64,000 bases of DNA from Amoebophrya sp. A120 (lineage: Eukaryota; Protista; Dinoflagellata), in contig CAJINV010000008.1 in NCBI GenBank assembly GCA_905178155.1, positions 1 to 64,000 on the forward strand, given 5' to 3'. A program made the translations under genes and the position numbers. Numbering within the stretch: the stretch's first letter is position 1; the number at the start of each line of letters is the position of its first letter. Below the pieces are notes generated by a model, which was not told the DNA's origin, did not search any database, and saw only the letters and a list, made by a program, of their open reading frames with translations. Shown here piece after piece: positions 2,764 through 30,343 of the stretch.

Positions 2764-5406
2764 CTACATCTTGCGCCGTTTTGCGTCTGGCGGCTGCAGC
2801 GAAGAAGCAGGTGTGACATTTTGCGAGGCAGCTTCTCTTGGAGACGAGGCGGATCCTGCCAGTTGTAGCGCAGGCATGACAGGAAAAGTCGCCCCGGCGT
2901 CCCCGCTGTTGCTCGTTTTCGGTGGCTATGCGATGCAAATATCACTCCGTCACTCCGGGTTGTTAGGATTCTCGTTGAAAAGAAACACTTGATCATGACA
3001 ATAAGAAAGCGGAAGCGCTCATGCAGTTGTCATAATTGGACGTTCAAGCACGGGATTATGGTTTGATCATGTTCATGTTGCATTTTTGAATTTTCAGCGA
3101 AAAAAACATCAAGAATGAAATAACGTCCGCATGATATTAAAGTTGATTCGCTTTCGAGAATGACGGAGGTAATATTGTTTGCGTTCGATAGAGGCATGCT
3201 GGGCGAGTGGTGGCTCCTGCGGCGGACATCGGGGGAGTGCAGCGACTCGGTGGCGTGCTGCCGCCGCATGTGCGGTGAGGATATGCCGCACATCTTCTCC
3301 GGCTGTAAAATTTCGTCCACCTGGGACTTGTTCAGAAATCCCTTCTCCACCACGACTTCGCCGACAGCCCGGTTTTCCTTCAGCGCCGTCTTCGCCACCA
3401 GGGAGGCGTTCTTGTAGCCGATGGTGGGCAGCAGGGACGTGACGATCCCGATGGAGTTGTGCACCAGCTCCCGGCAGCGGTCCTCGTTGGCGCCGATGCC
3501 GTCCACACACCGGAGGCGCAGCGTGTCCATGCCCTTGCTGAGCACCTGCATCATCATGAAGATGGAGTGTATGATCACGGGTTCGAACACGTTCAGCTCG
3601 AGCTGCCCGGCCTCGGACGCCATCACCACCGTGTTGTCCATGCCAATCACCTGGAACGAGCACATGCTCATCACCTCCGGGATCACCGGGTTCACCTTGC
3701 CCGGCATGATGCTGCTCCCGGGCGCCATGTCCGGGAGGTGGATTTCGTTGAAGCCGCACCGGGGCCCGGACGCGAGCAGCCGCAGGTCGTTGCAGATCTT
3801 GGAGATCTTGACCGCCACGCGGCGGAGGATCCCGCTGAAGAACAGCATGGCGCCCACGGAGCTGCTGGCCTCGATCAGGTCCGGGGCGAGCTGGATGGGG
3901 AGCCCGGTCACCCGCTTCAGCTCCTCGACGGCGGTCTCGCTGAATCGCGGGTCCGCGGCAATCTTCGTGCCGATCGCCGTGCCGCCCAGGTTGCAGAAGC
4001 AGAACCGGTCCACGCCCTTGGTGACCTCTTCCAAGTCGTACCCAATCGTCGTGGCGTAGCCGTTAAACTCCTGGCCCAGCGTCATCGGCACGGCGTCCTG
4101 CAGCTGGGTGCGGCCCATCTTCACGACGCTGCAAAATTCTTCGGCCTTGTTCAAAAAGGACTGCCGCAGCTGCTCCATGGACTTCACTAAATGCTTGTGC
4201 ATGTGGTGGATGGCAATCTTGGCGCTGGTTGGGTACGTGTCGTTGGTCGACTGGGCCTTGTTCACGTGGTCATTCGGGTGGCAGAACTGGTAGTCGCCCT
4301 TCTTCTTGCCCATGATTTCCAGGGCCCGGTTCGCAATCACCTCGTTGGCGTTCATGTTGGTGGACGTCCCGGCGCCGCCTTGCACCTATCCTGTGCAAAA
4401 GTATCGTACTCCTAGTCATTGCAGTCATGCATGACAAGTCTGGTTCGTTCCTTAGCTTATTCAGCATTACAAATTCCATTTTTCCTTCTGGAAAAATTTG
4501 TGATGCTATTTCTACTAGTACGATACTTTTGCAATGCATAGCACCATGTCTACCACGAAACTGTACCGCAGGTTCCGCATGATGTCCGCCTTCTCGGGCT
4601 CCTTCTCCTCGTACCGCTTATCCTGCAGAAAAGCACAACACCCAGCAATATTCAAAAATACTTATTTGCGATTTGCAGCTGTCTCAAGTGTGGTCACAAA
4701 GAATGGTCTCTTTTTGCCGGCTTTTCAAGAACGTGACGAATTTTATTTCAAGTCCTGGACTACTTGATGACTCCAGCTACAGGTCCGCATCTTTACACTC
4801 TCCATCTTTTATTTTAATTACAACAGTATGACCACAGAAATAAATTGCCTCGCTAGTGGCTCAGCATTGCAAGAAAAGGCTATCGGGACGGGAGAACAGC
4901 GAAACACAAATTCAATTTTTTCTGGTGTAGGAGTAGGTATGCTTTTCTCTAGGATAGTGGTCCGGGTCCTCGATGAGCTCGTCGCAGGCCTGCACGATCG
5001 CGACCATGATTTTTTTGTCAAGCCCACCGAGGCGATGGTTGGCCAGCGCACAGGACTTTTTCACCTGCGCAAATGCAGTGATAAACGAGGGGAACTGCCG
5101 CAGCAGCATACCGGTGATCTGGTAGTTATCCACCGCACGCAGGGTTTGCACGCCGTAGTAGGCGCCGACGGGCACTTCGCGCTCGCCGATCAGATCGCGC
5201 TCCAAGCGGGTCGGCCCCGTGATGGAGACCGGACACCCGCCGTGGCGCCCGTGACGCTGAAACGACAATCCTACACTCTCAGCCGCGGATCCGCCTGCCG
5301 ATACATTGCTGTGGCGGGCCGGGACGTTGTGGTCTACCGACAGGTGCTGGTGCGTTCGCGGCGGAGAGCCAGGCTTGGTCGGCTGGCCTGCGGGTGCGCT
5401 CGACAT
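2764..5406 (-). CDS. aspA: Aspartate ammonia-lyase (aspartase), 4 exons
   Basis: Motifs GEREVP..AYYGVQTLRA, VDMVQGGAGTSTNMNANEVIAN, HPNDHVNKAQSTND, KMGRTQLQDA, GSSIMPGKVNP. Exons ~5406-4957, ~4618-4545, 4385-~3191 and ~2925-2764. The last exon (...PPDAKRRKM*) is inferred from frame only. Confidence 0.92.
2927..3190. mobile_element. Decayed introner (264 bp) forming the last aspA intron
   Basis: Starts tatgcgatgcaaa, ends tttgcgttcgata; flanks gtggc/gaggc (4/5); residual catgacaa and ttgtcat motifs; removal gives in-frame SPSMPPKTSNS. Confidence 0.6.
4387..4540. mobile_element. Introner family C (154 bp)
   Basis: Ends tatcctgtgcaaaagtatcgtact ... agtacgatacttttgcaatgcata; perfect DR gcacc; removal gives VVDMVQGGAGTS. 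Can be excised as a GT-AG intron at 4544-4386. Confidence 0.95.
4619..4956. mobile_element. Older introner (338 bp, family E) with eroded TSD
   Basis: TIR tatcctgcagaaaagca / tgcttttctctaggata (15/17). Flanks ccgct/gtggt match only 2/5, but removing element+5 gives in-frame EDPDHYEEKEPEK. Confidence 0.75.
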
Positions 5407-6455
5407 GCTGATGTTCTTTTTTAGATAGTTTAGCAGTTGAAATCAATTCGGCGGCAAGCGCGATGCAAAAAGAAAAAGAAATGGATTTATTTACTATTTC
5501 CAGGAGGTTCTTTAGGTCTTCGGGAAAAGAAGATAGGTGGATCGCACAGATTATACAAGGAAAACTTTTATTGAAGATGAAATAGCGGTTGAGGCGAAAT
5601 TAAATAGCGAAGGATAATGACAAAAGGTGTTCGCTGCTAGGAAGAGCTCCACTAGGTAGAGTAAACTTTGAATGTTAGCAGCCGAAAATGATGCATGTTT
5701 CACATCAAGAGCAAACTGCAGAGAAGGGGGCATTAAAATGGCAGTGTGAACTTTCGATTTTCAAAACCGACAAGCACTATAGTACTTGCCTCTGGCAACC
5801 GATGTGAGCGCTCGTTATTTCCATTTCCTCATTTCGTGGACAAAACAGAAATTTTTTTTTTTACAAAAGCAGGGTCATAAATTTGCTTCAACAGGTTGAC
5901 TACATCGCTGGTATTAAAGTACGTAGATCTGTCTTTATTGAGTAGGCATGCAGGCAACGATGTGACCGAAGGCAAGGGAACCACCTGTGGTATCATCACC
6001 GATAATGAGGATGCTTTTAGTTTCATCTATATCGTTGTCGCGTCGATGGCACATCAGATACATACATCCTAGCTCTTGTAGTTTCCTATCGGAACAACTC
6101 AATGGGTTACAGGAGTGCAACCTCAAGTGTCTATCGCAAGGTGGCCGTTTTTCCGGCATTCCTTCCACATTCTTGTAAGTAATCTTTTATGTTGACATCG
6201 AGGAGGCACCGTCGTTATTGTTTCAGGAGTCTCAATTTCTAGGAAGGCAGGGGTTCTGCTACAGGAGCTGCCCTTGTACCGAAGTACTGCGGGTTGCAGC
6301 TCGAGTTTAGAATAAATGTGGGAATTCTACTTTTGTCCACCCTTCGTTTTTCCGCATTTGCGTTGCAGCTTTTCCAATAACAATATCTCCGTCTACTGCG
6401 ACTGTTCGGCTCCTGATTTTGTTGAAGAAACAGAAACACCTTTCGGTTGTTCCTA

Positions 6456-9283
6456 TTAAAGCTCCTCGTCCGAGTCTACGCTCGCTTCTCCACTTTTTTC
6501 TTCGTAACTTTCTTCATCTTGCTTCTGCTGCTCCTCCTCGTCGTCGCTTTCCGCTTCAGAGTCGGTGCCGTCGCCGTTTTGGGCCTTCTTATACTGCTCG
6601 TTCGCACGTCGCAAGTCCTCCTCCTCTTCTGAGTCCCGATCTAGATCCGTTCGTCGCGCCACGTATGCATTGCAAAAGCATCGCACTAGTAGAAATCGCA
6701 TTACAAATTCGGCCCGCATGAGAAATAGAATTTGTCATGCTGTTTCACCTTGGAATAGAGAATTGTAATGCATGATTGCGATTACTACAAATACGATACA
6801 GTAGTTGCACAGGCTACCACAGTTTCCTCATAAATTTCGCGCATGTTGTAGTTGTACCGTTTCTGGTATCCTGTGCAAAAGTACCGCATTCGTACTATAT
6901 CGCATTGATGCATTACAAATTTCCTTCTCAAGCTAAATGCGCATTAGAAATTCCACTTCTCATGATGAGGAAATCTGTCATGCGATTTATACTACTACGA
7001 TACTTGTGCAGTGCATATCTGGTACCGCCTCTTCATCAGTTCGCGCACGCTACTATCAAATGTAAAAGTGTCTGGGTCTGGAAGATTCTGAGAAATGTCA
7101 TGCATGTTTTGCATGACCCAGGATGTCTGTAATGCACGACCGCGCATCACAGATTTTGCGCTGGCTTCCTGATGGCTACTCCGCATGACAAATGCCCTCC
7201 CCGCGTAGCACAAAGTAGACTCCTCGTCTTGCTGGTCATGCAATACAGATTTTTCTAGAGTCCAAGGTTAGCATCACAAGTTCCAATCTTCCAGACCCAG
7301 ACATTTTTACATTTGATAGCTCCCCAAGACCCCCTCGTCGAAAAAGGTCACATCGTGAAACACCATGCGTATGGATTGCAAAAATGTCTGGGTCTGGAAG
7401 GATGCGAACTTGTGATGCGTGTTGCGGATCATACAAAAATCTGTGTTGCGTGACTTTCAAAAGGTCCCCATTTCTGGCCATTCTGAGAGGGCATTTCTCA
7501 TGCAGAATAGGCATCACCAAGGGGCTCCAGAACCTGTGATGCCAGGCCCTGCATTCCAGACTTGGCGGAGCTTGGAAAAACTGCATGACAAGTCTCGGAA
7601 TCTTCCAGACCCAGACATTTTTGCAATGCATAATGCGACTACCGTCCTCCCTCGGTGGCAGCGGCGTGCAAACCGTCTCGTTCGTCGGCAGGCTAGCCTT
7701 CGGCCGCGTTTTGGAGAGGTCCGGGATGGTGTCCAGGTTCTCCGCCCAATGAAAATCATCCTGCCGACTCCACCTTGTCGATACAATTACAAGTGCCTTA
7801 TAGAGGTTTTCAACACGACTGGCACACGCACAGACACACACACGTGCGGCATCGAGAAAGGTCATGATGCATGATCAGCAATTTTGTCCTGCGTGAGGAC
7901 TTGGCCATTTAAGTACGGTTTACAGAAGGTTTCTTTGTGTTTGTAGTTTCTCATGTGAAGATAGAAGAGTACAACTTACCAAACGTTGACCGCCAGATTG
8001 CGGGTTCCCCCAGAATTGACCTGGTGAAACCAGCCGTTGGGAATGAAGAGAATGTCGCCCTTGTACATCGTCAGCCGTTGCTTCGGCACGTGAAAAAATT
8101 TGGGGTGCTTTTTCAGGTTCACCCGATCTTGGTTGATCCTGGAGTAGCCCCCCTTGATCGCAATTTCGCGGGCAAACTTGGGGTCGATCAGCGTGACGAG
8201 CTTGCTGCCCTCCTGGAGCATGAGAAAGTTGTCGGCGTCATCTTGGTGCAGCACGGAGCTGGTGCCTCCGCTGGAGAACCAGATGGTCATCGACTGATAC
8301 AGGTTTTCCTCGCAAGCCAGCATTCTGGGGATTTCCACATCGCTCTGCAACCTCTCCTCCGCAGATAACTTCTTTTTCGATGAACTAGATTTGGCGGCTC
8401 TGGTTCTTTTGGAAGATTTGAGGTCGAGCATCTTGCGGTTGTGCAGCACAAATTCGGGCGGCGCGCCGTCCTTCGCCTTTTTCCCCTTCGGGCCCTTCAC
8501 CGCGAACGCTTTCATCAGCCCCGCAGGACTTTGGCCGAACTCCGGGACCGCCTCGGTGCCGATGATGGCATACAGATCCTCCACGTCCTTGCGTTTGATG
8601 AAGTCCTTGAACAGCATCTGTGCTCGGGGCCCGCCCCGGACCTCCGATTTGGATCGTTCCGCATTCACAACAATTTTGCCGATCTTTTTGTCCTTTGCAA
8701 AGTACTGGTCGGTCCACTTCTCCAAGAAGGGGTTGCGGAAGTTCGCGTTCCGGAACAGCACCGGCTGGTGGTGTCGGGCGTACTTCTCGTAAAATTCTGC
8801 CCAGTCGATTTCGCCTGATACCACCGGCACTGTGTTGGTCGTCGCGGGAAAGTCCGCCATTGGCGCCCCGTCTAGTTCGTGGAATTTCTTTTTACCGCCC
8901 GAGGATTTAGTATCCTCCTCATCGTCCTCATTCTCCTCCTCTATTGCCTCCGGGATCTTCTTCGTGCTGCTCGGGCGATCGTTTGAGTTTGTGGCTTTCT
9001 TCGATTTTTCTGCGTCACTGGTGGCACTTGCTGCCTTTTTGCCACCGCTATCCTTTTGCTTGTTCTGTTTCTTTTTCGCCTTTTTTTCACTTTTGGCTTG
9101 CTTCGCACTCTTTTTTTTCGCACCACTTTTTTTGCCGACAACTTCCAGGGTGGGAAGTTGCTCCTGTGATGTGCACAGCTCGTGAAATGGACGCAACAGA
9201 GACACGATCACGAACGAAGTAGCTACAGCACGAGTCACGAAGCCACCAGTCGCACGAGGCAAGTAGCTTGCCATGCCCGACAT
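6456..9283 (-). CDS. JmjC/cupin-8 domain 2-oxoglutarate oxygenase, probable secretory-pathway protein ending DEEL
   Basis: ORF 7976-9283 has a hydrophobic N-terminus, PVLFRN, SVLHQDDADN and GDILFIPNGWFHQV (HxD...H triad). A GT-AG intron (7979-7774) and four introners follow; the spliced tail reads NVWWSRQDDF...GSRMVFHDVTFFDEGVLGSVRELMKRRYQKRYNYNMREIYEETVARRTDLD...SDEEL*. Confidence 0.88.
6664..6816. mobile_element. Introner family C, reverse orientation, diverged (153 bp)
   Basis: Starts tatgcattgcaaaagcatcgcactag, ends tgcacaggcta (ATA end mutated to CTA); flanks ccacg/ccaca; removal restores frame. Confidence 0.85.
6867..7017. mobile_element. Introner family C (151 bp)
   Basis: tatcctgtgcaaaagtac ... 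gatacttgtgcagtgcata; perfect DR tctgg. Confidence 0.92.
7054..7318. mobile_element. Introner family A (265 bp)
   Basis: TIR tatcaaatgtaaaagtgtctgggtctggaagatt / aatcttccagacccagacatttttacatttgata; flanks gctac/gctcc. Confidence 0.94.
7370..7632. mobile_element. Introner family A variant with C-like tips (263 bp)
   Basis: tatggattgcaaaaatgtctgggtctggaag ... cttccagacccagacatttttgcaatgcata; perfect DR atgcg. Confidence 0.94.
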
Positions 9284-9983
9284 GATTTGGATTTGCCTGC
9301 AAAAAACGCCTTATATAGAGGATCTGGTTTCTGGTATTTTTAGTACTCTTTTCTCTGCTGCTTCCTATAATTCTCTGTTCAATGATGCAATGGGAAATCT
9401 GAACCTTCGCGTTCTCCTTGACATCTCGGGATCCTTGCACGAAGATAACGCTAGGAATGAATGAACACGTACTTAGTTGGAGGACACACTGGCCCCGTCT
9501 TCCACCTTGTTGCAACTCCAAGAACAAAACTCCGTGAACGAAGTGATCACTTAGAAGTACTGACGGCGGGACCTCTTCTGTGTCAACATATTATCGTTGG
9601 TACTTTACTATGTATCGTGGCATCTGTCTCGGCGACCGCGTGAAAGAAGCCGTGACTTTTGTCAGAAAAATCGTCACATGTTCGGCGGGGGACGGGGGCG
9701 TCTTCACCATTTATTCGATGCGAGAACACGTGGATCCCAGTAATAGCCCCTACTAGTTACTAGGTTCGCGCGCTGTCAAGATTCGCTGGGACATGCTGCA
9801 ACCACATAGTAGAGGTTGTCTTCATGGATATTGTCGCGGAATTTTTTTGTCGCTTGGTGTCGCAGCCAATCGTCGAGCAAAACGGAGCGAAGGCGCTTGC
9901 TTATGCTTTTCCTGTCGTGAGCAGAAAGTAGTTTCTTAGTAGAGGAACAGGGGTCTTCAACAGCTTTTCCTTTTCGCCGACCT

Positions 9984-11779
9984 CTACAAATCCGCATTTT
10001 TGCCTCGCGTATTGCTTTTGCCCACGTGGTCGTCTGATGATGTCTTGAGGTGGGTGCTTTCTCTACTTTCCTTGACAACAGAATCCGCAGCCTCTGCCCA
10101 GTGACTTGCTTCCTCTCCATCTTCTTCGTCGTCGGGAAACAGGCTAGTAGTCGTCCCTGAGCGGCCTGTGCTCGGGTTTTTTTTGCTGGCGTGGACTTCT
10201 TGTGTTCTGTTGCTCTGGTTTTCTGGATCCGAAGACGCTGGCACTTGTTCTCTCCTATCTGAAGATGATGCTGAGCTAGAACCACTTCTTATTTTCGCCG
10301 TTGAGGACGAAGAGGAACTTCCTGAAGCCGCAGCACTGGAAGCAGCACTACCGGCTGCTTGCTCCGCCTGCTCTGCGGCCTCCTCCATTTCGAGATCTTT
10401 GAGTTTCGGCAGCTGAAGGCGAGAGGAAGATTCGGGCGGGGCGATTTTGTTCACGCCCCAATCGATCAGCTCGTCCACCGGCCATCGCAAATCCTCAAGC
10501 TGGAAGCTGCTCCGGGACAACTCATTTCCTGCCGCGTAGAAGAGGAGCAAGAAGAGGGCCCTGATAGATCGATAAATTGAACGTCGTGCTGTACAAGTTC
10601 AAGTGAGTCTACAATTTCACCCGCTTCATGTAAAAATTCCTTCAGGCGACTTTATGGCATGTTGGAAACTAAAAAAATGTCTGATACACTACTAACAACC
10701 GTCGGTGTCGCAGAGCCAGAAGCAAGTGGTTGCTGATCGATGCTGATACAAAAGTATGTCCGACTGCGACAGGAAGATTTGGATCCAAACAAATCAAGAT
10801 CTGGTACCTGAGTATGAGAAAAGCCTCGTCGTCACAGGTTTTCGCGAGAAACCACAACGGACGATGAGCTTCGTACCACGGGAGAGAGTCATCGAACAGA
10901 TTTGGCATGAGCCAAAACTCGAAGCCAATAATCCAGAAGACCAGAAATAGCAGAATGCGTAACCAGCAGAAGACGATGAAACCGACGGAAACAAGGACGG
11001 CACCGTACCAAAGGAATAGCTTGATCCACATAGGCCATACCGGAAAAAGGATCACCATTATCACCGCAAAAACGATGAGAAACTGTAGTGATAGTTTGTG
11101 CTCTATGTGTAGTTTTATGGAATGATCATGAAAACGAATATCGGTATCATCGTCAAGGTCAATGATGAAGGCGGAAAAATGATAAGATGGATACGTAACA
11201 TGTCTAAGCGTTAATAGCTAGTCCTAGTTGTACTATCTTCAGCAAGACACCGAAATTAAAAAATGACAATGAGTAGCACTACTACCAAAACGAAATCGAT
11301 GACTGAGAAAAAAATACCGCGTATAGTCGGTGATAGGGGTCCGGCTTCTCGTAGTTAATGATGTAAAAGTCGTCCTTCCCGAACCAGCCTTCTGCTGTCC
11401 GCACGATGCGTTCTGGCCACTTCTTGGGTTTTGCTGTGGAGCCAAGCGCCTCGTACCGTGCTCGGCTTAGTATCCTGCTGAGCAGCAGCTTGTTCATGAT
11501 TTCTTCCGCCACTGCTGGCGTTATCACTGTCAGCTTGCGCTCCAGCAGCCGACCGAAAACGGCCAGGTAAACCGGGTGCTTCGCCCGGAGCTCTTCCATA
11601 GTGAAACAGTAGTCGCGGCCGCGAAAGTAGGTCACCTTTCTGCGCCCGAGCTCAGACGTTACTTTCACCCCCGTACTCAGGCCGGTTTTTCCGGTCGTGC
11701 GTACCCCGCCCTTGGCCCGGGACAGCAACGTCACCGCGTCTTTCACCGGTTCTGTCCATTCCGGTAATTCTTCCTCCAT
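9984..11779 (-). CDS. SEC62: Translocation protein Sec62, 3 exons
   Basis: Motifs VTYFRGRD, KPKKWP, ILFPVWPMWIKLFLWY, LRILLFLVFW, FWLMPNLFDD. In-frame GT-AG introns at 11317-11083 and 10807-10561. Confidence 0.9.
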
Positions 11780-12649: not shown

Positions 12650-15600
12650 TTAGTCGTCTTCACCAGATTCCTTCTTTTGCCTCAAAATTTCGTCGTATTC
12701 CGAATGCGGGAGCGGCTGGTCGGGCACTGTTAGTGCGGACGTGAATTGCGGATTCATTTCATGCAGGGGGGGCGCAATGTTCTCCGGCCACGCCTCCATT
12801 TCGTCATCTAGGGCAGCGCCTTTCACCTGCACAGAGGTGCCACTTCCAGTGGACGGGGCGATGTGGTACGGTTGTTTCATCAGCCGCCGCGAAGGAGCGC
12901 TGGTGCCAAGAACGCCCCCCGCCGCCGTCCCGTTACTGGAGTTGGTGCTATTTGATTTTGACTCCGGGATCAGATAGCTCGGAGACTGTAGCGCTGGACT
13001 CCGGGCTGCGCTCGTCTTTAATATCACAGGACCACCAGGAGTAGCTCCTCCGGGGTCAAGTTGACGCTGATCTGTTTTTGATGAGGTAAAAACAGTACCA
13101 CCTCGTCCCTCGGTCGTAGTACCTTGATCAAGGTCGTTTGCGTTGCTCAATGTGCTGTCCAGTGCATTGGAATCAACGGGTCGTCGTTGATGTTCCGAGG
13201 TAGTGGTTTTTGCGTCAATCAAGGAAGGCGCAATTTCGTCCTCATCGACGTCAACGTCACCTGCACGACCAGAGCTTGAGTTTGCGGCACCTTGCGAAGC
13301 GGCACTAGTACCAGGCACTGTGCTATCAGAAGGTGCGGCTGTGGATCCTGAGGAAGAGAAGGCAGCTGATGTGGATGATGAGGATGACGAAGCGAACAGA
13401 AGGTCCCGCGACGCAGACGACGGGCTGGAAGATATTTGGCCGCGAATCGCAAGGAGGTCGGGCGCATGATCTTGGTCAATTTTTTCAAAATCAGACCCGG
13501 AGCTCTTGATTTCGATCTTGGCTTCCATTTTCGAGCGTTCGAAAACCTCCTCGATCACTTTGGCCTCCTCAGCATCGTCCTCTTCGTCTTCGTCTTCCAG
13601 AGCAGCATCCTCCCCACTCACACTGGATATGCGCGTGGTCAAGAATTGCTCCGCTTGTTCTTGCGCGGGCAGTTGCTGCTGTTGATCCGCGATTTTTTCG
13701 ATTGCCGGCGGCGCAGTCGGTGTAGTCGGTTTGTTCGCCGCTTGGTTCTGCTTGGTCGCCACGACAAGCGCGTCGGACAATTGCTCCGACTGTGCCCCCT
13801 CTTGTAGCTCGGCGGCGGCAATTTTTCTGGCACTGACGGCGTGTTCGGACACTTCTGTGTCTACTGCCGGAGTCGACATTGCGGATGCCGGAACCACGCC
13901 GATGTCGTCATTTTGCTCATCATCTTCTGCGGACGATGAAGAAGCGCCAGTACTGCTACCTACCCCGAGGAGCATTTTCTTCATCTCTTTACTCGCGGCT
14001 TCGACATCTGTCTCCAAAAGAAGGTCGGGCGCAGGGGGCGCTCCACCGCCCCGAGCGGCGTCCTCGTCCGCTTTCCTGGTAGGGAAATCGCCACCTTGTG
14101 ATGTCACCGCTGGCGTCGAAGCTACTTCCTGATTTTCGTCTACGCTACCTGGTGCCCCCGGTTGCTGGGTTGAAGCACTAGAGGACTGTTGCTCTTTGAT
14201 ATTACTCAGACTGCCTGTAGTACCGGTTGCTGTCCCAGCAGCTGCAAGAAGTGACGCGGTGCCACTCAAAGCTGTAGTTCCTGCGAGCGCGGCTTCTTGC
14301 CGACTGCTGATCGTGCTTCCGGTGGGGCTGTTGGTGCTGAAGTGTAGGCTTTCCGTGTCGCTGAATTCGTGGTCCTCATCCAAGAAGGTCGCGGTCGTGT
14401 GAGTGGGCGCGGTGGGGATGGGGAAGTTCAGAGCCCGCGCCACTTCGCGGTCACTCGAGTGCTGCAATGAGCGGCCCGCGGCCAGCAGTTTGCGGTGGTG
14501 GCAACACTTCCCGATGCCCGGCTTGAGGTGCGGACCGATCAGCAGCGCCCACTGCAGTCGCACGTGCCGCACCTTGTCCGCAGCGAGGTCGCCCAGATTC
14601 GTCAGAAAAAACGACACAAACCGGCGGCTGACAGTGTTGTCCCGGATCAGGGAGTCCACCATCTTCAGATAGGTGATGCGGTTCTGAAAGTTTCCGTCTT
14701 TGAAGGTTTTTCTCAGGTGATTCACGATGCGCTTCGTGCGGAGCGAGAAGTACTTGTTGTTGTAAAAATGATTCATCTTGTTCCCAGACTGTATCGCCGA
14801 ATGTAGTTGTCCGGTTGTAGTTGACGAGGATCCTTTGCCCGTTGGCGTGCTGCCGACGCTCATTGTGGTCGTTGCCATGGTGGTTCTGGGAGAGGGATCA
14901 AATTTGTTAGTCGCGATCATATTACCTCCGCCGCCTCCGCGAGAAGAGGACACCGATGCCGGAGAGTCGCCCGACGATATTGACGAGGCAGGGCCACCAG
15001 CGGTCATGTGATCCGATTCGCCGCTGCTACTCAGTTCGGCACTGATTTTCGACGGTGAGGGGGACGACGCATTGGCACCTCCTGGAATATTAACACCGCC
15101 CCCTCGGGTCGTCGACGAGGAAGTATGTTTTCGTGCCTCTTCGCAGACGGCCTTCAAAACCAGATGGGTGGCGGCTGCTGCTTTGGACCGAACGAGTGCG
15201 ACGCCGTCGTGTAGCAATTTGAGGTACGTGGGGAGCAAGTGAACGAACACCAAGTTGTGGTCGTGGGTGTATTTTTATCCTGTGCAAAAGCATCGTACTC
15301 GTATAAATGCAGGTCTCGTCTTGCATTACAAATCCTGTTCCCAAGGCAAATCTGCATTACAAATTTTATTTCTCATGCTGAGGAAATTTGTAATGCATTT
15401 ATACGAGTACGATACTTTTGCAGATCATAATTTTTCGCAGAGTGCCGGCAAGCTGACCGTGGCGATCAGGTGGCGCAGCCTCCAATTGTCCGTGGATGCC
15501 ATCATGTGCGAGAGGCCCATCAGATACTGCGGATGAACCTCAAACATGCCCACGTGCTTGGCGAGCCCGAGTTTCACGTCGTCGCGGTCCTGCGTGAACT

Positions 15601-18600: not shown

Positions 18601-18699
18601 TGGCACGGGGAGAAAATGGCCCCCACCGGCACGCACAGCACTCCCACTCGCGGAAGTTGGGTCTCTACTTCCGGAGGAACCACGCCCGAAAAGATTCAT
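12650..18699 (-). CDS. HEAT-repeat phosphatase regulatory subunit (PP4R1 / PP2A-A-like) with low-complexity termini
   Basis: HEAT motifs (LAWDAEAEVR, LSNDSDEEAR, LGEDQKAAVRKA, LCEDVNYTVR, DNWRLR, LAADKVRHVR). Joins: FANSQ|LAVQR, EITS|LCYQ, GYIL|FALQ (GT-AG intron 16685-16475) and CEK|YTHD. Confidence 0.8.
15276..15429. mobile_element. Introner family C (154 bp)
   Basis: tatcctgtgcaaaagcatcgtactcgtataaatgca ... tgcatttatacgagtacgatacttttgcagatcata; perfect DR atttt; removal restores frame. Confidence 0.94.
17422..17686. mobile_element. Introner family A (265 bp)
   Basis: tatcaactgcaaaaatgtctgggtctggaa ... ttccagacccagtcatatttgcatttgata; flanks aggta/aggtg. Confidence 0.92.
17732..18039. mobile_element. 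Introner family D (308 bp), single copy in window
   Basis: 39-bp TIR (37/39) tatggaagcgtcaggattgaaatcgacaaagttgaaata; perfect DR ctgac; internal gcatgacaa and ttgtcatgc motifs; removal restores frame. Confidence 0.92.
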
Positions 18700-20128
18700 C
18701 TGCTGAGCTCTTCAATTTTAAGAACGCAATTCTTGATCTTGTCCCATGTCCGTTCGACGAGTCCTCGCAGGAGTAGTGTGCTGTAGTTCTCAACAGCGTG
18801 AAGGAATGTTAGTGTTACTGCAAGCTAAATAAAATAAAAATACGTAAGTACTATCCAGACGGAGATGGATCATGGCCACTCGCGGCTTTAGTAATGGTGC
18901 ACTCAATTTCTTCGCACTCCTTCGGGTACCCGGATGTTCTTTCTCACAACAGAACTACACAGGGAAACAACTACATGTACATATAATAAAAATGACATGA
19001 AGGTGGAGAGCTAGAATCCTCACAAGCGCAGCGCCAAAATCACAGGGCAAAGATACAACGCTTGCCTCATTGTTGTTGTAGTAGAACAGGAGTAAAGAAG
19101 CCTCATCCACAGACAGAGAGAAGGCACCAGAGGAGGACGCTTTCGTGCATAGAGAGATGGCACAAGTATCCGATAGTACCAGCAGACCGAATAGGAACAC
19201 ATAAATATCCCTCCTCTATGTCCGACGTCCTTTTTTATTTTTTGTGCAACTGTACTTCTTACACATACACACCCAACTCAAACAGTAGACACACGCTCGT
19301 GCTAGCTCGAAGTTTCAATTTCTCGTCCGGTATCGGTTCTGCTTCTGATCATCAAGGAGGACGAAAATAAAGACGCAACTTTCTTTCATCTTCTAAAAAA
19401 TCGACAAAGTAGCACCGAAGGACACTCTTGGTTCCAGTACTATCCAAGATCTTCCCTAGTGTGAAAAGCAAACCTTGGTACACAGTGGGATGCATCACGA
19501 CTCTCCTCCTGGTGTTGTGCAACCAATACTTACATTTTTTCAACAGTACTTTATCAAGTGCGCTGCCCAGAAAAGGCCTGTAGCACAGCTACTTGCGAGA
19601 ATGTTCAGCGCACTTCTTTGGCTCCTGAATTCGTGGTGTCGAAAGTAGAAACTATATATCAACTTCCGTTCCCGTAGTTCTCGTCGGCAAAGTTGTAGTT
19701 CACTTCAACAAAAACAAAAAATTGGCTCTGAACTACCTTGTTCTAGCTTCTTCAATCCAATAAAGCTTTCGCGAGGACAGTCGACTTAGCATGTAGCACC
19801 TTGCGTGCTGGTGCTGTGCGTCACAGACGAGGGGAGCAGACCCGTTCATGTGCCTTCTACTGCAGTTTTTGATTTTCTCCACCTCTGGTGGTCCGGCAAA
19901 GGGTATGCACATGCGGCTACACCACATACGATTTTTATATACACAAAAGCTCAACGAGTCAACGTCATCAACTGTACTAGTACTAAGTGTAAACCTGATT
20001 GAAAAAGAAACTTAAAGAAGTAGTAATTGTCACAGTAGAAGCGCGATATGGAGTTCGGAACGAACAAGGTGCTGCAATTTTTGAAAATTGAATTGAAAAA
20101 GTCTTCACGCGTCGGATGCAGCTTTTCT

Positions 20129-20999
20129 TCATCTGCGTTGGCGCTTCGCCTCATGGCGGCCCGTGTCACCGTACTTCTGAAGATCCCGGGTGTCGTAGTC
20201 AAAAGTCTCGAATTTTCTGCCTTTGTACTCGTCTTTGTCTCTGCCGCCTCGGGTATCAAATGCAGATATGTCTGAGTCATCTGGAAGATTGCAAGATTTC
20301 TCATGCACATCTTGCATGATGCATGACGTCCGTGATGCATGTTGCCCTAGCATCACAGGTTTTGTGAGGGGTTCCTGATGCCTATACCGCATGAGAAATA
20401 CCTATATATTTATAATACCCCTCCGCGTACTAGCAAGAACTGCGCTCCTCTGGCTCCTCACGCAATACAGATTTTTGTTTTTCTTTTTGCAGCATCCAAA
20501 GGCAGCATTACAAGTTCCAACCTTCCAGACCCAGACATATTTGCATTTCATATGGGGCCCTGCTAGCTCCATCTTTAGGATGGCAGTAGTCGCGGTCATC
20601 GTAGGTCAGACGGCTTTCAGGTTTTGAAGCTGGTGGCGTGCGGTATTGGAACCGAGGCACCCACAGGGGAATAGCACAAAACCGATCGCCGCGGCGGTTC
20701 TTGGTCAAGTTGAACCGGACCCAGTCACCCTCCTTCAACCCGGTCGGTCGCAAGACCCGATCGTGAATGAAGACGTCTTCTAGGTTTTCGGTCTTGGGGC
20801 CTTTCGTGACTCGGAGGAAGCCGTTGTTGGACCAGTTCAGGACGCGGTTCACCTGACCTTCGAACACGCCCGGGGTTTTCGCGGAAGAAGTCCCGTCCTG
20901 GATCCCTTTCGGATCTCCTAACAACAGCCAGTCCGCCGTCTCCAGCCAGGAGGGACGCTCCGTGCTCGCCGCTCGCCAATACCCGTCGTTTTTTTCCAT
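20129..20999 (-). CDS. Cold-shock/OB-fold domain coding segment (own gene, or last exons of the upstream multi-domain gene)
   Basis: FEGQV...NNGFLRV...EDVFIHDRVL..TGLKEGDWVRFNL matches the CSD RNP1/RNP2-like pattern; continues in frame across element 20254-20552 to ...AKRQRR*. Confidence 0.7.
20254..20552. mobile_element. Introner family A (299 bp)
   Basis: tatcaaatgcagatatgtctgag ... ccagacccagacatatttgcatttcata; flanks tcggg/tgggg; removal restores frame. Confidence 0.9.
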
Positions 21000-21199
21000 A
21001 CCCGACCTGTGCTTGTTCTTGTTGTGCTTTGTCTTCACAATGGAATCAGATGTATGAAGAAGAAGCCACTTTTTTTGCACTTCCTCGACTTTAAGACTTT
21101 ATGTGAATTATGCACAAGTAGAACCTCGTCCTTTCTGTGTAGTAAGTGTAGCGATTTTAGTGCTACATACTTTATTGAGGAACCCGAAGAAATTTTAGT

Positions 21200-23470
21200 T
21201 TAGGTCTTTTTTTGAAGAATCAAATTATATGAGTACGGGGTCTTCAGTCCCTGCTTCGACTTGTCCGGTCGTTCGATCGGGATGCCTGCCGCTGGCCTCT
21301 TCATATTGACGTGGTCACGCGAGCTTCTTTCGGCGCCGAACCCCCGCTCGCGTTCTCGTTCCCGTTCCGCCCGACCGCCACCTCGTTCCCGTTCGTATTG
21401 CTCGATGGCTCTTGCTCCGAGATCGTCCGTGATGCGCACGCCCCGACCCTCTGCTATGAGGTCGTAGTTGTTTCTTTCCGTCTATGCACCCGCAAACATG
21501 TTAGGAAATGTTGAACAACTGAGAACGTCGGCAAACAGACGTCGGTGGCCTGGAGCCACAGCCATGCGCGCCGTATTCTTTTTTGTGCGCATTGCGCTTG
21601 CGCATGAATTGAAGGCAAGTCGCGTGTTTGCATGACGAAAAAGTAGACCCATTGCGTCAGAACCAGAGCAAGACCTCCAGTCAGGCCGAATAGGTAATAA
21701 ATATGTCAGCCGGAGGACGAGAAAAGCATCTCGATCTTAACAGTCCCCAGAACGTTATTCTTCCACACCCGAACACATTTGCATGTGATACATTCAGAGG
21801 AACCTCGCCCTTCTCCCGGCAACGAATCCAGAAAGGGGTGCTAATACCATTGCGCATCAGGCTTGCGTCTTCGTCCACACAGAAGGCCAGTTCGTCTGCT
21901 ACCCGAATGCCAGTAGTTCCGACGTCATCCTTCGACACAAAAGGGCCTCTATTGACGCAAAACTACTCCGAGTCAACTTACTTTTTCTGTACGCATGAAG
22001 ATCAACTCTATGGTCTTCTGTATCCGCTTTCGCAAAGGAAGGTGATGCAAGCCACCATGCAAAACCAGTGAAAGAATTTGAATTGACTCGAAGTAGTTGT
22101 ATATGTTTTCTGTGACATAATCCTCGTTAGTCATCGCGACACATTTCTTGGAAAACACGAAGCACGCCTGCGTCTTGCTTTTCTTGTAGACGTGTCCGAC
22201 AAAGTCGCCGAAACGCGGAATCCTGCCGCGCCCTTCCCATTTTTCCTGGAGTGAGTTGTAGTTGTGTCATTGAGTGTTAGTGTAGCGCAGTCAGCTTTGG
22301 TGAAGGGGCCCAAATTCGTATGGCCAAGCATTTTCATTCAACGTTTCTTGTTGCAAGAACCCACGGGCCAAGTGTCTGGAAACGCTGCGGCTGGAGCTGC
22401 CGCTGCTCGAACTCGATAAGAAAAAGTACTTAAAAAGTCGAAATTGCAGTCGTCGTCCACCGAAGCACAAGCTTGCTGTGGTTCCAGCTGTGAAAAGAGA
22501 CGCTATTTCCCCCCCCCCCGGTATTGGCTAATAACACACAACTTGAACTTTCTCTTTATTCTGACCCCGACGTCGTCCGATGAGCACTCTTGCGTTGCCC
22601 AACCTGCAGCAGGCGTCAGCTGCACTGGTACTAACACAGTGGCAAGCCAAGCTTGCTCAATACCAACTTGAAAAACAGAAAAACAAAACCCTCCATGGCT
22701 AAGCAGCCTGAACAAGCGCAAACGTGCTTTTCGTGCCTTTTGTAGGAGCGGCGCTTTTTGCTGTTGCATTGATACCCAAGCAACGGCATCATGATCCGCA
22801 CCAGCAATACCGGCATCTGGACGAGCAAGCAGCGACGTTACCAGGGGCAAGAACGTAAGTTGTACTGGCAGAATGCGTAAAGCCAAGCTGATCTGAAATG
22901 CATATGCATCATGAAAAGTACCGCTTCTCGGGTGCTCCAGCCGATTCTCCAAATGGGCTTTTTCGAGTCCGCCAGTTGCCAGCCCTCGCCATTGTGAAAA
23001 ATATTGACCGCCAGAATGTCCCCCGCCTTCAATTCGTACTTCGCCAGGGCTGTGTTTTCTACGAAGATCATGCGCTCCTTGGAAAAGGCATCCTGGGTTT
23101 CATCGAAGGCCTCCAAGTAGTTCTTTTTGCGCGGCGCTCGGTCGCGGGCTCCGCCGCGGCGGGCCCTTCCCGTCTCGTCCTCTTCGTCCGGGTCCTCTGC
23201 TGTCGGAGCAATCGCCTGATGGACTACCGTATGGTCCCCGTCTGGTGTTAAATGGTCTGACACGCGCCCAACGAGCACCGTCTCCGGGTCGCAGATCTTT
23301 GCTCTATCGTAGTCCGGCGCGTTTTCTTTTTCCTCGGCGAGCCGCAGCCGCTGTTTGCGGTTTTCCGATTGCAGCTTATAGTAGGCCGATTCCGCTGCTG
23401 GATGCCGATCAGTACCGCCAAGCTGTGGCTCTATCATCTCGAAAAACGTAATAGCTCGGCCCATTTTCAT
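21200..23470 (-). CDS. Exons of an uncharacterised protein with degenerate OB/CSD-like units
   Basis: ORFs 22838-23470 (IFVENTALAKYELKAGDILAVNIFHNGEG...KPIW), 21681-21938 (GIRVADELAFCV...STPFW) and 21200-21439 (RE-rich); exon joins not resolved. Confidence 0.5.
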
Positions 23471-23601
23471 TTAGCTAATATTCGAACGCGATCGCGAATA
23501 TAGAAGAAGAAGAAATACAAAACATGAAAAGACACTTTTGCACAACATTGCTCCGTTTACTTGTGTCTGCGTAAAAGAGTCGATATTTTTTCAGAGTACG
23601 T

Positions 23602-26198
23602 CTACGTTTCTAATATCGGGTGCTGAAGACGCTCACGCGTCGCACAAGATTCCAACAGGTCCATGAGAGTCACGAGTTCCAGACCACAGCAAGAGCAGCG
23701 ATATTTGGTGCCGACGGGGCAAGGAGCATCCGCTTCTCCTTGCGCCGTCCGTCCCCCTAGTAAAAATGGTGCGTTTATTATTTCAATGTGTATAATCACG
23801 ACCGAGTCCTGCCACGTTTTTCCACATGATAGGGCGCTCGATATGGTCGCTAGAAAAAACAGGCCGCTTCGACGGAGAGCGGCGCCGTCGCGCTGGGCCG
23901 CCTCGGGTATAGGTCAGGTCGCGGACCCGTTCGAGAGAAGCGTCTTTCTTATCATGGCGGTCTCGCCTGGCATCCCCGTAGTTCGCGGCTGCGTCTCTAC
24001 TGCTGCCCGCGTCTTCACGCCCGCTTTGGTGCAGCCTGAGGGGGCTCCTGCCTCTGTCTTCACGACCCCTGTCCCCACGGCTGCTGGCGTTGTCAACAAC
24101 ACTCGTGCTCTTAGCTGAGGCCGCACCCCCGGTAACATCACCGGCTGTGGTCTCTTTCCTGGTTGCCAAGAGATCTTGGTGATGGTGAAAAGCTTGTTGA
24201 CGATTCGAAACACTCATGGGGTGCTCCGCATACTGGGCCTTTCCCTTCGACGACTTCCCGCCTCCCTTCAGAGAGGATGGGTCATTGTACTGTCGAGCAT
24301 GCGGAACATACCCAGGCCGCTCTAGAGGCTTATCGTCGTCGTGAGTGTTCAGGCTAGTTCCGCCACGCGGTCGCGCGCCTCCGTCTTCATACCTTTCTGG
24401 GCGCTTAGATGGGGACCTCGGATTTCGCCGCTTATCCTTATGGTCGCGAGACAAGCCGTCATAGTACCTATCTGTTTGAGGAGCAGCTGCATAGCCGTTG
24501 CGGTCGCCTCGCCGGCGCTCCCGCGAGCTCCGGTCCGCCTCACGAGGAGCTTTGTCCGGCTTTGAAGTAGAGCCTGCCGTGCCAGATCGATCTTTTTCTT
24601 TATTTTCAGTAGACGAAGGCGGTGCATCTGCATTGAAATTGCTTGCATTGCCACTCGAGCCTCCTCCGCCAACATCATCCGTTTTGCTACCCTCCACTTT
24701 CTCCTTGATGACATTGTGTTTGGCAATAACCCCGTCAAGCATTGTAAGTTTGTCCGTCTCTGAAAGGTCCGCCCTACCCATAATGGCAGCCACCAAAACT
24801 GAAAGCTCTTGCGCCTTCGGTTTACCGTTTTCCACCTCGCTGCCAACATCGGGTTCGTGAGTTGTGGTTTCTGCTTTGCGGGGAATGTCACGAACCTTGG
24901 ATGGCCCCGGCTTTCGCGGGCCCCGATCCGGAATTTTACTGGGTTCCCGCCGGTGTCGAGGCGGGGGCCGCTCTAGTTCCCGTCGCTCGCGGTGAGCGCT
25001 ACCTGCATTTGTGCATTTTGCAGATTCGGACTAGACAGACGAGGAACACTATTCCTGTGTGTCTGATGCGATCATAAAGTTTCTGGATGAAGAGGGCATG
25101 AGCGACGATCCCGAAGGAAAAATTAAAGATGACGAGAGTGTTATAACGCATAAATGCTTTGTAGTAACTGTATGTAAGTGAATCTGAATACAAACAACTC
25201 ATTGGAGTGTGATAAGTACGTTGCTCGCGCTCTCGTGCCCTGCTCCTTTCTGCTTCGCGGTCTGGGTCCCTTTTCTTGTCGTTGTCTTTGTCTGGTCGAT
25301 CGCGATCCTTGTCGTACCGATCGCGATCCTTGTCGTACCGATCACGATCCTTGTCGTACCGATCGCGATCCTTGTGGTCGTCTCTGTCGCGGTCTTTGTC
25401 TTGCCGATCGCGGTCCTTGTGGCCCTCCCGGTCGCGGTCTTTGTTTTGCCGATCGCGCTCTTTGTTGTCTTGCCGATCTTCGCGCCGGTCCTTGTTGTGG
25501 TCTTCTCGGTGGTCAGCACGGTCTCTATAGTTTTGCCGGTCGCGGTTGTTGCGGTCATCTTGCCGCTCGCGGTCGCTATGGTCGTGCCGATCGCGGTCGT
25601 CATGGTGCCCTACTTGGTGATCGCGGTGGTCTTGGCGGTCGCGGTCTTTGTTGTAATCTTTATCTTGCCGATTCCGGTCCCTCTGATCTCGCCGATCGCG
25701 GTCCTTAATATGGTCGTACCGATCATCGCAGCTCTTGCGTTTCTCTTGCATATTACTTAGGGGCGGCTCGTCCTTCTCTGCCGTGGTATACAACGTATGG
25801 GTATGAGCATTTGTTGTATCAGCTGGAGCTGCAACAGCCTCGTTGTCTTCCTTACCTTCTAGCTCCAGCGCTTTTCTGAACAATGCGGCGCAGGATTTTT
25901 CGGGACTTGTCCCTTCGCAGAGCAGCCGCCATATCACCGGCGACGGTTCTTTGTTTTTCATGTTGTCCTGTTGCTCGCTGGAAGGGTCAGCGTCAAGCGG
26001 AAGCGAGATTGTTGGCAATTGAAAATCACTTCTGCTTGAAGTGATTAGATCGCCTCGCCTCACATCGTGCAGAAGTCTTGGCGTGATGTTTTGCAGGGAA
26101 ACTTTGTCCGTACAGCCCGGCCTCCAACCGTACGCTTGTTCGCTATCGGTGGGAAAGATCTTGGGGTCAGGAATAAAATCAATGCCGACCTCGTCCAA
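23602..26198 (-). CDS. Exons of an RD/RS-rich uncharacterised protein
   Basis: ORF 24999-26198 splices in frame to ORF 23783-24835 via a GT-AG intron at 25219-25003; probable next exon carries YRCSCCG (23602-23757). Confidence 0.65.
25297..25375. repeat. 21-bp coding tandem repeat (~3.7 copies) encoding DRYDKDR, within a longer degenerate RD repeat extending to ~25720
   Basis: Unit cgatcgcgatccttgtcgtac repeated with a single substitution. Confidence 0.85.
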
Positions 26199-28563: not shown

Positions 28564-29465
28564 GGAATGAGCTATTCACGTTGACGTCGAGATCGAGAAG
28601 ATATTAGTTCCAAACAGGCTACTAACTAATGATAGCCAATGGGTCTTCTACTCTCCGGCTGCATTTATGCGAATATCGAAGAACAAGTGTAAGTGCATGC
28701 TCGACTAGAAGTGGTCCGACCTGTTGCCTGCGAAGAGCAAGGTTGTTCCTACATTGAAAAAAAAAATGGTTCCTCCACAGCTTTTGAATCACATTTCCAG
28801 TGTCATAAGTGGACTTTATACTCATTCACAATCGCAGCTCTTCAGTTTGTTTCAATGCCACAGACAGATGAAAGGGGAAATTATGCTAATTGAGGACACA
28901 CCAGCTCACACGCCTAGGTTTCAGCAGGGACGAAACAAATATAAGAACAGCGCGCTATTTCTATAAAGGTGTGATCATCGTCTTCTAAGGTTGCTATCAG
29001 TTCTCCTCGTTCACGTTCACTCCTCTTGTTTTTTACTACGTAGGGAAAATACTTGATCTGATCGAATTCCCTTGTCGTTGTCATTCTCACTAGTAACCAA
29101 TAGTTGATGTAAAAACAACCGCTGCCGCTGCAAAGAGAAAGACCGGAAAATACTTTTCAAGAGTTTGTTGGTGGGTGCTGCGAGGAGGCACCCTGAAAGG
29201 CGTGAACAGAAACGCAACAATGCGAGGTAAAGCACTGGGTTTGCTGCTCGTGACCACCACAGGCTTTACACAAATCCTCTTTCCTAATATTTATTTTCAA
29301 GGCGCCAGGTATCGACCCCAAATAAAATCCATCATCAACAGCACGCGCAGTGTTCTTCATTATAATTTCCTTGTGTTGATGATGTACAACTACAGTCGGT
29401 CTACAACTTTCTCTGCCAGACATGAATCCCGAAGTGTATTAAATCCACTTCAATACTCGGACTTG

Positions 29466-30343
29466 TTAGGTCGACGAGCTCTCATCTTCCTGTGGTATAA
29501 GGGTTCGGATCGTCACGGCGTGCCACTTTTTGATTTCCTCGCGTATGGGTTCCTGTACCATGCTATGCATTGCAAAAGTATCGCACTAGAATAAATTGCA
29601 TCACAAATTTTGGCAAAAAGAACAGTGGAATTTGTCATGCTGTTTTACCTTAGGAAGGAGATTCGTCATGCATAAATGCAATTTTTAGTACGACTACGAT
29701 ACTTTTGCACAGGATACATGCGCTCCCGCTGCAAGCGCGACTTGGAGTCGAACGCCCTGGATTCCACCACGATTTCGTAACTGGTGCCGCACCCACCGGA
29801 GCGGTCCGTCACCTGTACATTAACGGTCTCGGTTGGTGGTGACAGCTTCGCGGTGAAGTGTCGTGCGATCAGGTCACGCACGTGCTTTTCATACTCCGGC
29901 CCGGAGGACGGCGTGCTGGACGACGTAGATGACATGGTCCGTCGAGGTGTGCTGTGGTTCCTCGTCGCAAGGCCATGCGTGCTGTGGCACTGCGGCTGCA
30001 CGAAGCTGGTCGTGGTCGTGAAGAAAGACCTTGCAGCTGCACTTTCATTGTCTAAAAATACACAAGGCCGTGCTAGTACTCCACGAAGATGAACAAGTGG
30101 CCGCGCCGAGGAGACGGAACTACTAGCGGAGTAGACCATAGTGCTGGCAACTACAGGTGCAGCACATGCACTCCGGCGCACGGCGACTGATGATAACATT
30201 TGCGTACCACGGCCCTGGTTCCAAGTGCAGGTCGCAAGGGACTGCCGCAGAAGTTGGCTTCCGAGTTGTACAACTGTTCTGGCGGAGGTGGTACTGCGCG
30301 ACGCAAAGCTGCGCCGCTGCGAAACGAGAAACACAGAAGCCAT
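29466..30343 (-). CDS. BolA-family protein (BolA3-like) with probable mitochondrial transit peptide
   Basis: VQVTDRSGGCGTSYEIVVESRAF..KSRLQRERM|VQEPIREEIKKWHAVTIRT after removing element 29564-29716; R/S/T-rich, acid-poor N-terminus. Confidence 0.88.
29564..29716. mobile_element. Introner family C, reverse orientation (153 bp)
   Basis: tatgcattgcaaaagtatcg ... cgatacttttgcacaggata; perfect DR catgc. Confidence 0.95.

Follow-up and report, generated by a model that had tools for sequence, protein, structure and literature searches.

Non-canonical introners are known from Amoebophrya sp. A120, where such elements number about 30,000 (Farhat 2021, PMC7789003). As described there, direct repeats of 3-5 nt lie at the exon-intron borders, and the nine predominant non-canonical motifs of Table S4 all start with N-T. 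According to the legend of Fig. 3, where splicing takes place with respect to the hairpin is variable or not known. The same paper reports that U1 snRNA was not found and that nearly all other spliceosome parts were. Its text uses the word 'orientation' four times, each time for genes, and does not discuss the orientation of the elements. Introner classes of Polarella glacialis and Aureococcus anophagefferens make introns in either orientation (Roy et al., 10.1101/2020.10.14.339549), and a both-orientation result of Huff et al. (2016) is cited in the same work. Neither the orientation of the A120 elements nor the register of the cut was found in the literature searched.

The window analysed here is a stretch of 64,000 nt from an A120 contig (CAJINV010000008.1). 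Its inverted-repeat elements are the published introners and were already known, an identity that the original prediction for this DNA missed. They come from the same organism and share with the published elements the ends of TAT + 7 nt + AAA, the 5-bp direct repeats, the predicted hairpin, the non-canonical ends and the co-oriented genes. In these respects, there is no difference in kind from the description in PMC7789003.

Family C copies and their insertion sites

Five copies of a single family, designated C, are hosted by minus-strand coding frames in the window (Table 1). They are 151-154 nt long, have inverted ends of the form TAT...ATA and are flanked by a target duplication of 5 bp. 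The original prediction gave their coordinates and start motifs correctly: on the plus strand the copies at 4387-4540, 6867-7017 and 15276-15429 begin TATCCTGTGC, and the flipped copies at 6664-6816 and 29564-29716 begin TATGCATTGC. Its view that these are two orientations of one element, three copies lying one way and two the opposite way, was also borne out, as the reverse complements of the flipped copies align with the other three over their full length. The five-copy alignment has 81 invariant columns out of 172 and a mean column identity of 80%. The target duplication is exact in four of the five copies, with one mismatch at 6664, and all carry the terminal inverted repeat of introners (TAT, 7 variable nt and at least three A; 8-20 nt), degenerate in one arm at 6664.

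Elsewhere, 71 distinct copies were found, which makes family C a repeated family. An exact 5-bp duplication flanks 54 of 74 other family C matches, whose termini are fixed by the search pattern, and none has an exact duplication of 4, 6, 7 or 8 bp. Being short, non-coding and numerous, with terminal inverted repeats (TIRs) and target duplications, the elements are MITEs. The one longer TIR element of the window has no Pfam match. If retained, each of the five family C copies would place 2-9 stops in the coding frame, and the two flipped copies would also shift it (158 nt). The host frames, which had been described as intact, are intact only after removal.

Table 1. Inverted-repeat elements and host genes in the window; gene bounds are approximate.
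Feature	Position	Strand	Duplication, host and remarks
Family C introner, 154 nt	4387..4540	+	GCACC/GCACC; aspartase/fumarase family gene; antisense to reference in transcript
Family C introner, flipped, 153 nt	6664..6816	-	CCACG/CCACA; one arm degenerate; JmjC gene
Family C introner, 151 nt	6867..7017	+	TCTGG/TCTGG; JmjC gene; 50 nt from flipped 6664 copy
Family C introner, 154 nt	15276..15429	+	ATTTT/ATTTT; HEAT-repeat gene
Family C introner, flipped, 153 nt	29564..29716	-	CATGC/CATGC; splits BolA domain
TIR element, 264 nt	2927..3190		close to aspartase 3' end; no GT-AG
Older TIR element, 338 nt	4619..4956		aspartase gene; diverged duplication
Family B TIR element, 265 nt	7054..7318		JmjC gene
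Family B TIR element, 263 nt	7370..7632		JmjC gene; orientation opposite to 7054; GT-AG in no register
Family B TIR element, 265 nt	17422..17686		HEAT-repeat gene
TIR element of another family, 308 nt	17732..18039		HEAT-repeat gene
Family B-like TIR element, 299 nt	20254..20552		frame test ambiguous
Older TIR element, 400 nt	23432..23831		within long minus-strand frame; diverged duplication
TIR element, 220 nt	51588..51807		SYF1 gene; GY-AG absent within 12 nt
Family B TIR element, 269 nt	55163..55431		orientation as in 7370
Aspartase/fumarase family gene (Lyase_1, FumaraseC_C)	3030..5442	-	
JmjC/Cupin_8 protein gene	6460..9310	-	four TIR elements and one GT-AG intron (7774-7979)
HEAT-repeat protein gene	12650..18711	-	three TIR elements
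BolA-like protein gene	29469..30373	-	

RNA junctions and the register of the cut

Non-canonical removal is documented by three skips in RNA-like contigs, two of which lack any GT-AG reading. The contigs, X3 and X5, derive from two samples of one study, their RNA status being the guess of a tool. Both lack 4382-4540 (159 nt), and the 4387 copy is thereby skipped exactly, as the element plus 5 nt. Both also skip 2922-3190 (269 nt) and keep the upstream duplication copy of the 2927 element; this second junction has no GT-AG reading, its ends being CT..CA or TA..AC. The third skip, 4615-4957, was taken from the ends of contig pieces and not from a listed joint, and it ends CT..CG. It is unambiguous because the duplication of the 4619 element has diverged. 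A raw RNA run under the same species label (X10) gave 16 aligned reads, 15 of them aligned only partly.

On the sense strand, the 4619 element is cut out together with 1 nt on its 5' side and 4 nt on its 3' side. This register comes from one exact junction, read from the piece ends, and the second RNA junction is compatible with it. The cut is asymmetric about the hairpin at the first of these junctions, and may be so at the second, which means that the direction of the transcript is read even if that of the element is not. With the cut apparently fixed in this way relative to the stem, each removal would take a single target duplication with it, irrespective of sequence. The two duplication copies differ at position 4 or 5 in the elements at 288, 2927, 4619 and 20254. 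A symmetric cut 1 nt outside each end, which would add a codon invisible to a modulo-3 frame test, was rejected, as the three RNA skips and the A120 SYF1 protein show removal of the element plus 5 nt.

The original prediction had moved from orientation-independent removal to ends defined by the hairpin or by symmetric motifs. That step was too strong: introners of Polarella and Aureococcus work both ways with G[TCA]-AG, and two-way insertion alone therefore does not exclude ordinary splice sites. The argument against ordinary splicing is carried by the missing splice dinucleotides. GT-AG is possible at 2 of 74 junctions (chance expectation 3.7%) and GY-AG at 3 of 74 (chance 6.9%), so these are not canonical U2-type (GT/GC-AG) introners; among the window elements, GY-AG occurs within the duplication registers of 1 of 15. 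Additionally, no AG lies within 15 nt of the 3' end of the flipped 6664 copy. Along with the two RNA junctions without GT-AG, these results give partial support to the predicted symmetric ends without a strand-specific donor, branch point and acceptor.

Several candidate signals were considered and set aside. The 4387 copy can also be read as GT-AG, but a GT-AG built from the duplication and the terminal A fits this copy only, is at chance elsewhere, and at 2927 provides an AG that goes unused. A donor-like G at +5 of the sense end is unsupported (18 vs 28), and T at +2 and A at +3, present in 74 of 74, are built into the search pattern and are no evidence. Coding constraint on both duplication copies was also rejected, since 16 of 30 mismatches are synonymous, not significantly above the 42% that a single free copy would give (p 0.15; from 85 of 91 junctions). 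Eight of the nine motifs in Table S4 of PMC7789003 end A-N, unlike the copies analysed here, which counts against the mechanism preferred below.

Probable removal of flipped copies

Of the removal in either orientation that had been predicted, the RNA-like contigs directly document one side, the forward family C copy at 4387; no RNA junction of a flipped family C copy was seen in them. It is nevertheless very probable that flipped copies are removed like forward ones, as suggested by colinearity with a BolA homolog at 29564, depth arithmetic at 6664 and 68 further copies. In the comparison with BolA homolog P0001, the single relative found by homolog search, removal of the flipped 29564 element plus 5 nt fits without an indel and scores 230. 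The best GT-AG option at this site (155 nt) is in frame, leaves one extra residue and scores 219. The second BolA exon taken alone has no Pfam match. At 6664, the coverage of X5 ends at 6663-6664, and the length of the contig fits loss of all four JmjC elements.

The host strands of the 68 other family C copies are divided 35:33 (p 0.90). With the element plus 5 nt taken out, the frame is preserved in 23 of 35 copies of one orientation and 20 of 33 of the other, where chance predicts one third; this modulo-3 test is noisy, and it failed for one orientation at one setting (3 of 11, with 90-nt flanks and a threshold of 10). The same removal at the 51588 element of SYF1 is colinear with the A25 ortholog and agrees with the annotated A120 SYF1 protein, to which the exon is 98% identical.

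Mechanism, alternatives and known systems

The preferred reading, which we hold with evenly balanced confidence, is that A120 introners are non-autonomous inverted-repeat transposons, likely spliced out in either orientation, with ends set by the terminal hairpin. The same TAT-led motif at both ends is predicted to pair into this hairpin, which would set the cut sites; the intron would start 1 nt before the element and end 4 nt after it, its ends reading N-T...N-N, to which the N-T start of the Table S4 motifs conforms. Catalysis may fall to a modified spliceosome lacking U1, for which the U at intron position +2 would be the sole signal retained. Both ends of the element could supply that U, and the 3' site could be taken by distance from the stem. 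A bolder claim, offered only tentatively, is that A120 possesses a second splicing system, blind to splice dinucleotides and measuring from the hairpin. It would place its cuts 1 nt upstream and 4 nt downstream of any TAT...ATA transposon, whatever the orientation or the target sequence, and restore the gene exactly.

Hairpin-defined ends in both orientations might instead be processed by a nuclease and a ligase of their own, independent of the spliceosome, along the lines suggested for the nonconventional introns of euglenids. Such an enzyme is a possibility, if a somewhat doubtful one. It could do without a conserved donor G, an acceptor AG and an oriented branch site, and an acceptor-like TTTTGCACAG within the 4387 copy is passed over in RNA. 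The 1-nt/4-nt geometry would give a 3-nt 3' overhang, close to the N3 and N5-6 spacers of Euglena (PMC12501133); euglenid introns exit as circles (PMC11282704). However, the predominant A25 and A120 motifs have T as their second base, like GT introns; nearly all of the spliceosome is present, GT-AG introns occur in the same transcripts, and no candidate enzyme was found. A protein that bridges both ends might also read the symmetric motif (TAT + 7 nt + AAA) as sequence, RNA pairing being a by-product of the transposon. In favour of the hairpin, the predicted terminal stem has at least 10 of 20 terminal pairs in 25 of 25 and 16 of 18 copies of the two orientations, but positions 4, 6 and 7 of the family C arm are unpaired and the in-register stem at 6664 is poor (3 of 20 pairs), as such a protein would allow. 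G-U exceeds A-C on the sense strand by 64:29. In family C the unpaired columns are biased in the same way (16:6 and 70:52), and family B has no bias. The excess is thus not specific to stems and, with the family C termini fixed by the search pattern, does not establish selection on RNA pairing. Nonetheless, reading of the motif as sequence seems unlikely. The 3' arm on RNA is the complement of the 5' arm and not its repeat, which leaves a single protein no common sequence to recognise in the two, and families with different arms (288, 17732, 51588) act alike.

The two remaining alternatives question removal itself. Clean splicing of one orientation only, with flipped copies retained or cut at nearby cryptic GT-AG sites, would fit the finding of no flipped junction, the in-frame GT-AG option at 29564 and the orientation skew of family B (15:4 among called copies). 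Yet it is improbable given the unbiased strands of family C, the missing AG at 6664, and the coverage and length of X5. Still less credible, and largely refuted, is loss of the elements from DNA, whether IES-like or polymorphic, even though the TA at the ends of the inverted repeats and the exact removal of a single duplication copy are reminiscent of it. Depth is flat along the DNA-like contig X1 (41-94 in single-copy bins), which runs 26-29 nt into elements and contains neither listed skip. In X3 and X5, depth varies several hundredfold between genes and GT-AG introns are skipped too; moreover, RNA-seq validated such introns in PMC7789003.

Overall, these elements and the non-canonical way in which they are spliced were already in the literature, and the two rules proposed here would narrow the mode of splicing: orientation is irrelevant and the cut is apparently fixed relative to the stem. 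If both hold genome-wide, they would explain how about 30,000 elements could have entered exons with no need of splice signals, and they would supply a simple annotation rule for the A120 genome. A second splicing system, if real, would make exon insertion of TAT...ATA transposons nearly free.

The A120 elements resemble those of Polarella and Aureococcus, where introns arise on both strands from TIR elements flanked by target duplications. In those species, G[TCA]-AG arises from element ends and duplications and the target is constrained, whereas no such constraint applies to the A120 duplications and 7 of 74 junctions would allow G[TCA]-AG (chance 10%). The MITE-derived introns of Fritillaria borealis, as described in PMC11282704, likewise originate from TIRs and target duplications, lack GT-AG and are removed efficiently. 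In contrast, their dominant ends are AG-AC or AG-AT and a modified spliceosome has been shown, while in A120 three of the four terminal bases vary freely. Euglenid nonconventional introns also have paired inverted-repeat ends, no GT-AG, cuts at set distances and a longer 3' spacer, according to PMC12501133 and PMC11282704. Their rule, N3-CDG ... CH'G-N5-6 followed by a purine at the exon start, does not describe the A120 ends, which read N-TAT...ATA-N4 and have a purine after the 3' cut at only 45 of 74 junctions. Since the lineages are unrelated, the 3-nt 3' overhang of a second A120 splicing system would, if that system exists, be a convergent match to the geometry of Euglena nonconventional introns.

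Family C copies and other inverted-repeat elements

The elements of the window belong to an already known class, the introners of Amoebophrya sp. A120, and the original prediction's observation was real and correct. One SYF1 exon of the window shares 98% identity with a protein labelled Amoebophrya sp. A120 and 65% with that of A25. The A120 introners have inverted repeats composed of TAT, seven variable bases and at least three A, together with direct repeats of 3-5 nt and predicted hairpins (Farhat et al., 2021, PMC7789003). The window elements match every sequence feature published in the available text of that report. In the same source, 65% of RNA-supported A120 introns have non-canonical ends, no U1 snRNA was found in A120, and genes are arranged in co-oriented blocks.

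Five family C copies, 151-154 nt long, and 10 elements of other families were identified by scanning for inverted repeats that have TA ends and a duplication on either side. Two older terminal inverted repeat (TIR) elements with diverged duplications were added after the main scan; the detector found no elements in 30 shuffled loci. All five copies predicted originally were recovered, and the two described as flipped match the other three end to end as reverse complements. The hosts do lie on the minus strand, where all five copies break the frames of recognisable genes. The claim that these frames are intact holds only once the copies are removed: each copy, if retained, adds two to nine in-frame stops.

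Family B, a second TIR family, also occurs in both orientations. Among confidently called copies in the window and in the family C loci outside it (L001-L076), its orientation relative to the host is skewed 15:4, unlike that of family C; the skew may come from subfamily assignment. Four elements lie close together in one JmjC gene (6664-7632); they come from two families, both of which occur there in the two orientations, and the exons between them are only 35-51 nt long. Oppositely oriented neighbours in this gene (6664 with 7017, 7054 with 7632) could pair mutually.

Elements and other features of the window
Feature	Position	Remarks
Family B copy end	1-139	partial; truncated by window edge
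TIR element	2927-3190	aspartase gene
Family C, forward	4387	aspartase gene
Older TIR element	4619-4956	aspartase gene; duplication mismatched at 3/5 positions
Family C, flipped	6664-6816	JmjC gene
Family C, forward	6867	JmjC gene
Family B, second orientation	7054	JmjC gene
Family B, first orientation	7370	JmjC gene
Family C, forward	15276	HEAT-repeat gene
Family B, second orientation	17422	
Family B, second orientation	20254	
Partial or older TIR element	21484-21790	
Partial or older TIR element	23432-23831	
Tandem 21-nt repeats	25285-25715	code for D/R-rich low-complexity protein stretch; unrelated to introners
Family C, flipped	29564-29716	BolA-like gene
Non-canonical element	51588-51807	SYF1, itself a spliceosome (NTC) gene
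Family B, first orientation	55163	
Possible longer mobile element	60990-62025	1036 nt; perfect 16-nt inverted repeat starting TAG; no Pfam hits in open frames of 180-306 aa
Partial or older TIR element	62075-62302	

Junctions at individual copies

Evidence from sequencing runs came from 4 of 12 listed runs compared with window positions 1-19000. X3 and X5 are contigs, guessed to be RNA, of two samples from a single study; their depth varies by gene and GT-AG introns are skipped. X1, a DNA-like run, has flat depth, and its reads enter the elements by 26-29 nt. At 2498-2499, 6642, 8006 and 8410, X1 and one or more of the RNA-like runs depart from the window; these mismatches probably reflect assembly errors or alleles rather than editing.

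Skips were taken from the joints listed, 15 of 495. Both X3 and X5 contain a skip of 159 nt at the 4387 copy, ambiguous by 5 nt, and one of 269 nt at 2927-3190, ambiguous by 1 nt; the latter retains the upstream duplication copy and has intron ends CT..CA or TA..AC. A third skip, 4615-4957 with ends CT..CG, was derived from piece ends in both runs, in which the upstream exon ends at 4958 and is followed by a 74-nt middle exon. It comprises 1 nt, the element 4619-4956 and 4 nt, and cannot slide because its duplication copies differ at three positions. Since this element is still skipped in the main RNA-like contigs, identical duplication copies are not required for removal. An acceptor-like TTTTGCACAG closes the element on the minus strand, four bases inside the terminus, at 4387-4396, 6867-6876 and 15276-15285; the RNA junction of the 4387 copy leaves it unused.

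No flipped-copy junction was seen directly in the RNA-like contigs over 1-19000, among the 15 of 495 joints listed. Removal of the flipped 6664 copy has indirect evidence. One X5 contig depth, 15.5, recurs at 6642 and 8006-9113; given a bin mean of 7.91, coverage would stop at 6663-6664; and the length of a 1920-nt X5 record suits loss of all four JmjC elements better than keeping any one or two. Against removal, the X5 record is labelled '+' and places its first 1238 bases at 7978-9215, a poor fit to leftward continuation, and the adjoining bin is under-predicted (2.5 versus 3.7). The flipped 29564 site is spanned, with RLQRERMVQEPIR, by the sole BolA relative found (P0001, 71% identical). 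Against this relative, removal of the element plus 5 nt, one target-duplication copy (element+5), scores 230 and the best GT-AG options 219; one of these GT-AG options stays in frame, adds one residue and may be the one used. At 51588, both the A25 ortholog and the A120 annotation run colinear with the product of element+5 removal, and no GY-AG option lies within 12 nt.

Copies beyond the window

One pattern scan yielded 76 loci, all under one public assembly prefix and overlapping the window only in repeats. The duplications in 74 distinct matches are exact over 5 bp in 54 and carry one mismatch in 14. Dropping duplicates left 71 loci and dropping short flanks left 68, with host strand assigned by a coding model that had learned from genes of the window. 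Copy and host run in the same direction in 35 cases and in opposite directions in 33 (p 0.90). With 150-nt flanks, element+5 was the best of three frames, judged modulo 3 only, in 23/35 and 20/33 copies, respectively (p 9e-5 and 1e-3). This preference was kept in most other settings and failed once (3/11, one strand, 90-nt flanks, threshold 10); the window control gave 14/15, its elements overlapping the training set.

Splice dinucleotides were tested across all families in the loci: of 158 elements, 92 could be called confidently, and 74 were in the element+5 frame. GT-AG was achievable inside the duplication in 2/74 (3.7% expected by chance; 2 in the antisense control), G[TCA]-AG in 7/74 (10% by chance) and an AG end in 32/74 (antisense 34). 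The duplication bases at the 74 junctions resemble coding background.

Proposed mechanism and relation to known introners

A terminal stem is predicted on both strands of the elements, the degenerate 6664 copy excepted, with z as transcribed of -1.9 (29564) and -6.2 (4387). A putative transposase would place the element at practically any sequence, making a 5-bp duplication. Because the element ends are inverted copies, the pre-mRNA would present an identical 5' motif and stem in either orientation. Excision would then begin with the final base of the upstream duplication copy, run through the element and stop after the fourth base of the downstream copy, giving back the original sequence. Introns cut in this register are predicted to start N-T and to have free 3' ends. 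All nine predominant A120 motifs begin N-T, their placement within repeats being ambiguous (Table S4, PMC7789003); eight of the nine end A-N, whereas the copies here lack such ends.

Since the proposed cut is asymmetric about the stem, the machinery would have to read transcript direction. The catalyst may be a modified spliceosome keeping only the +2 U, a step to which we give about an even chance. Removal by a separate enzyme rather than the spliceosome is the less favoured reading and seems fairly unlikely.

In the literature searched, no statement of orientation independence or cut register for Amoebophrya was found, including the available text of PMC9860276, PMC12130899, PMC13326754, PMC12621601 and PMC11282704; subscription papers, the figures of PMC7789003 (Fig. 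3, S19-S25) and the dataset files of PMC12130899 may hold one. This analysis adds a count of orientations and, from few junctions, a candidate rule for the cut. In Euglena, hairpin-guided cutting at set spacings has been demonstrated (PMC12501133). The introners of Polarella and Aureococcus are known to create introns in either orientation, with near-canonical sites (10.1101/2020.10.14.339549).
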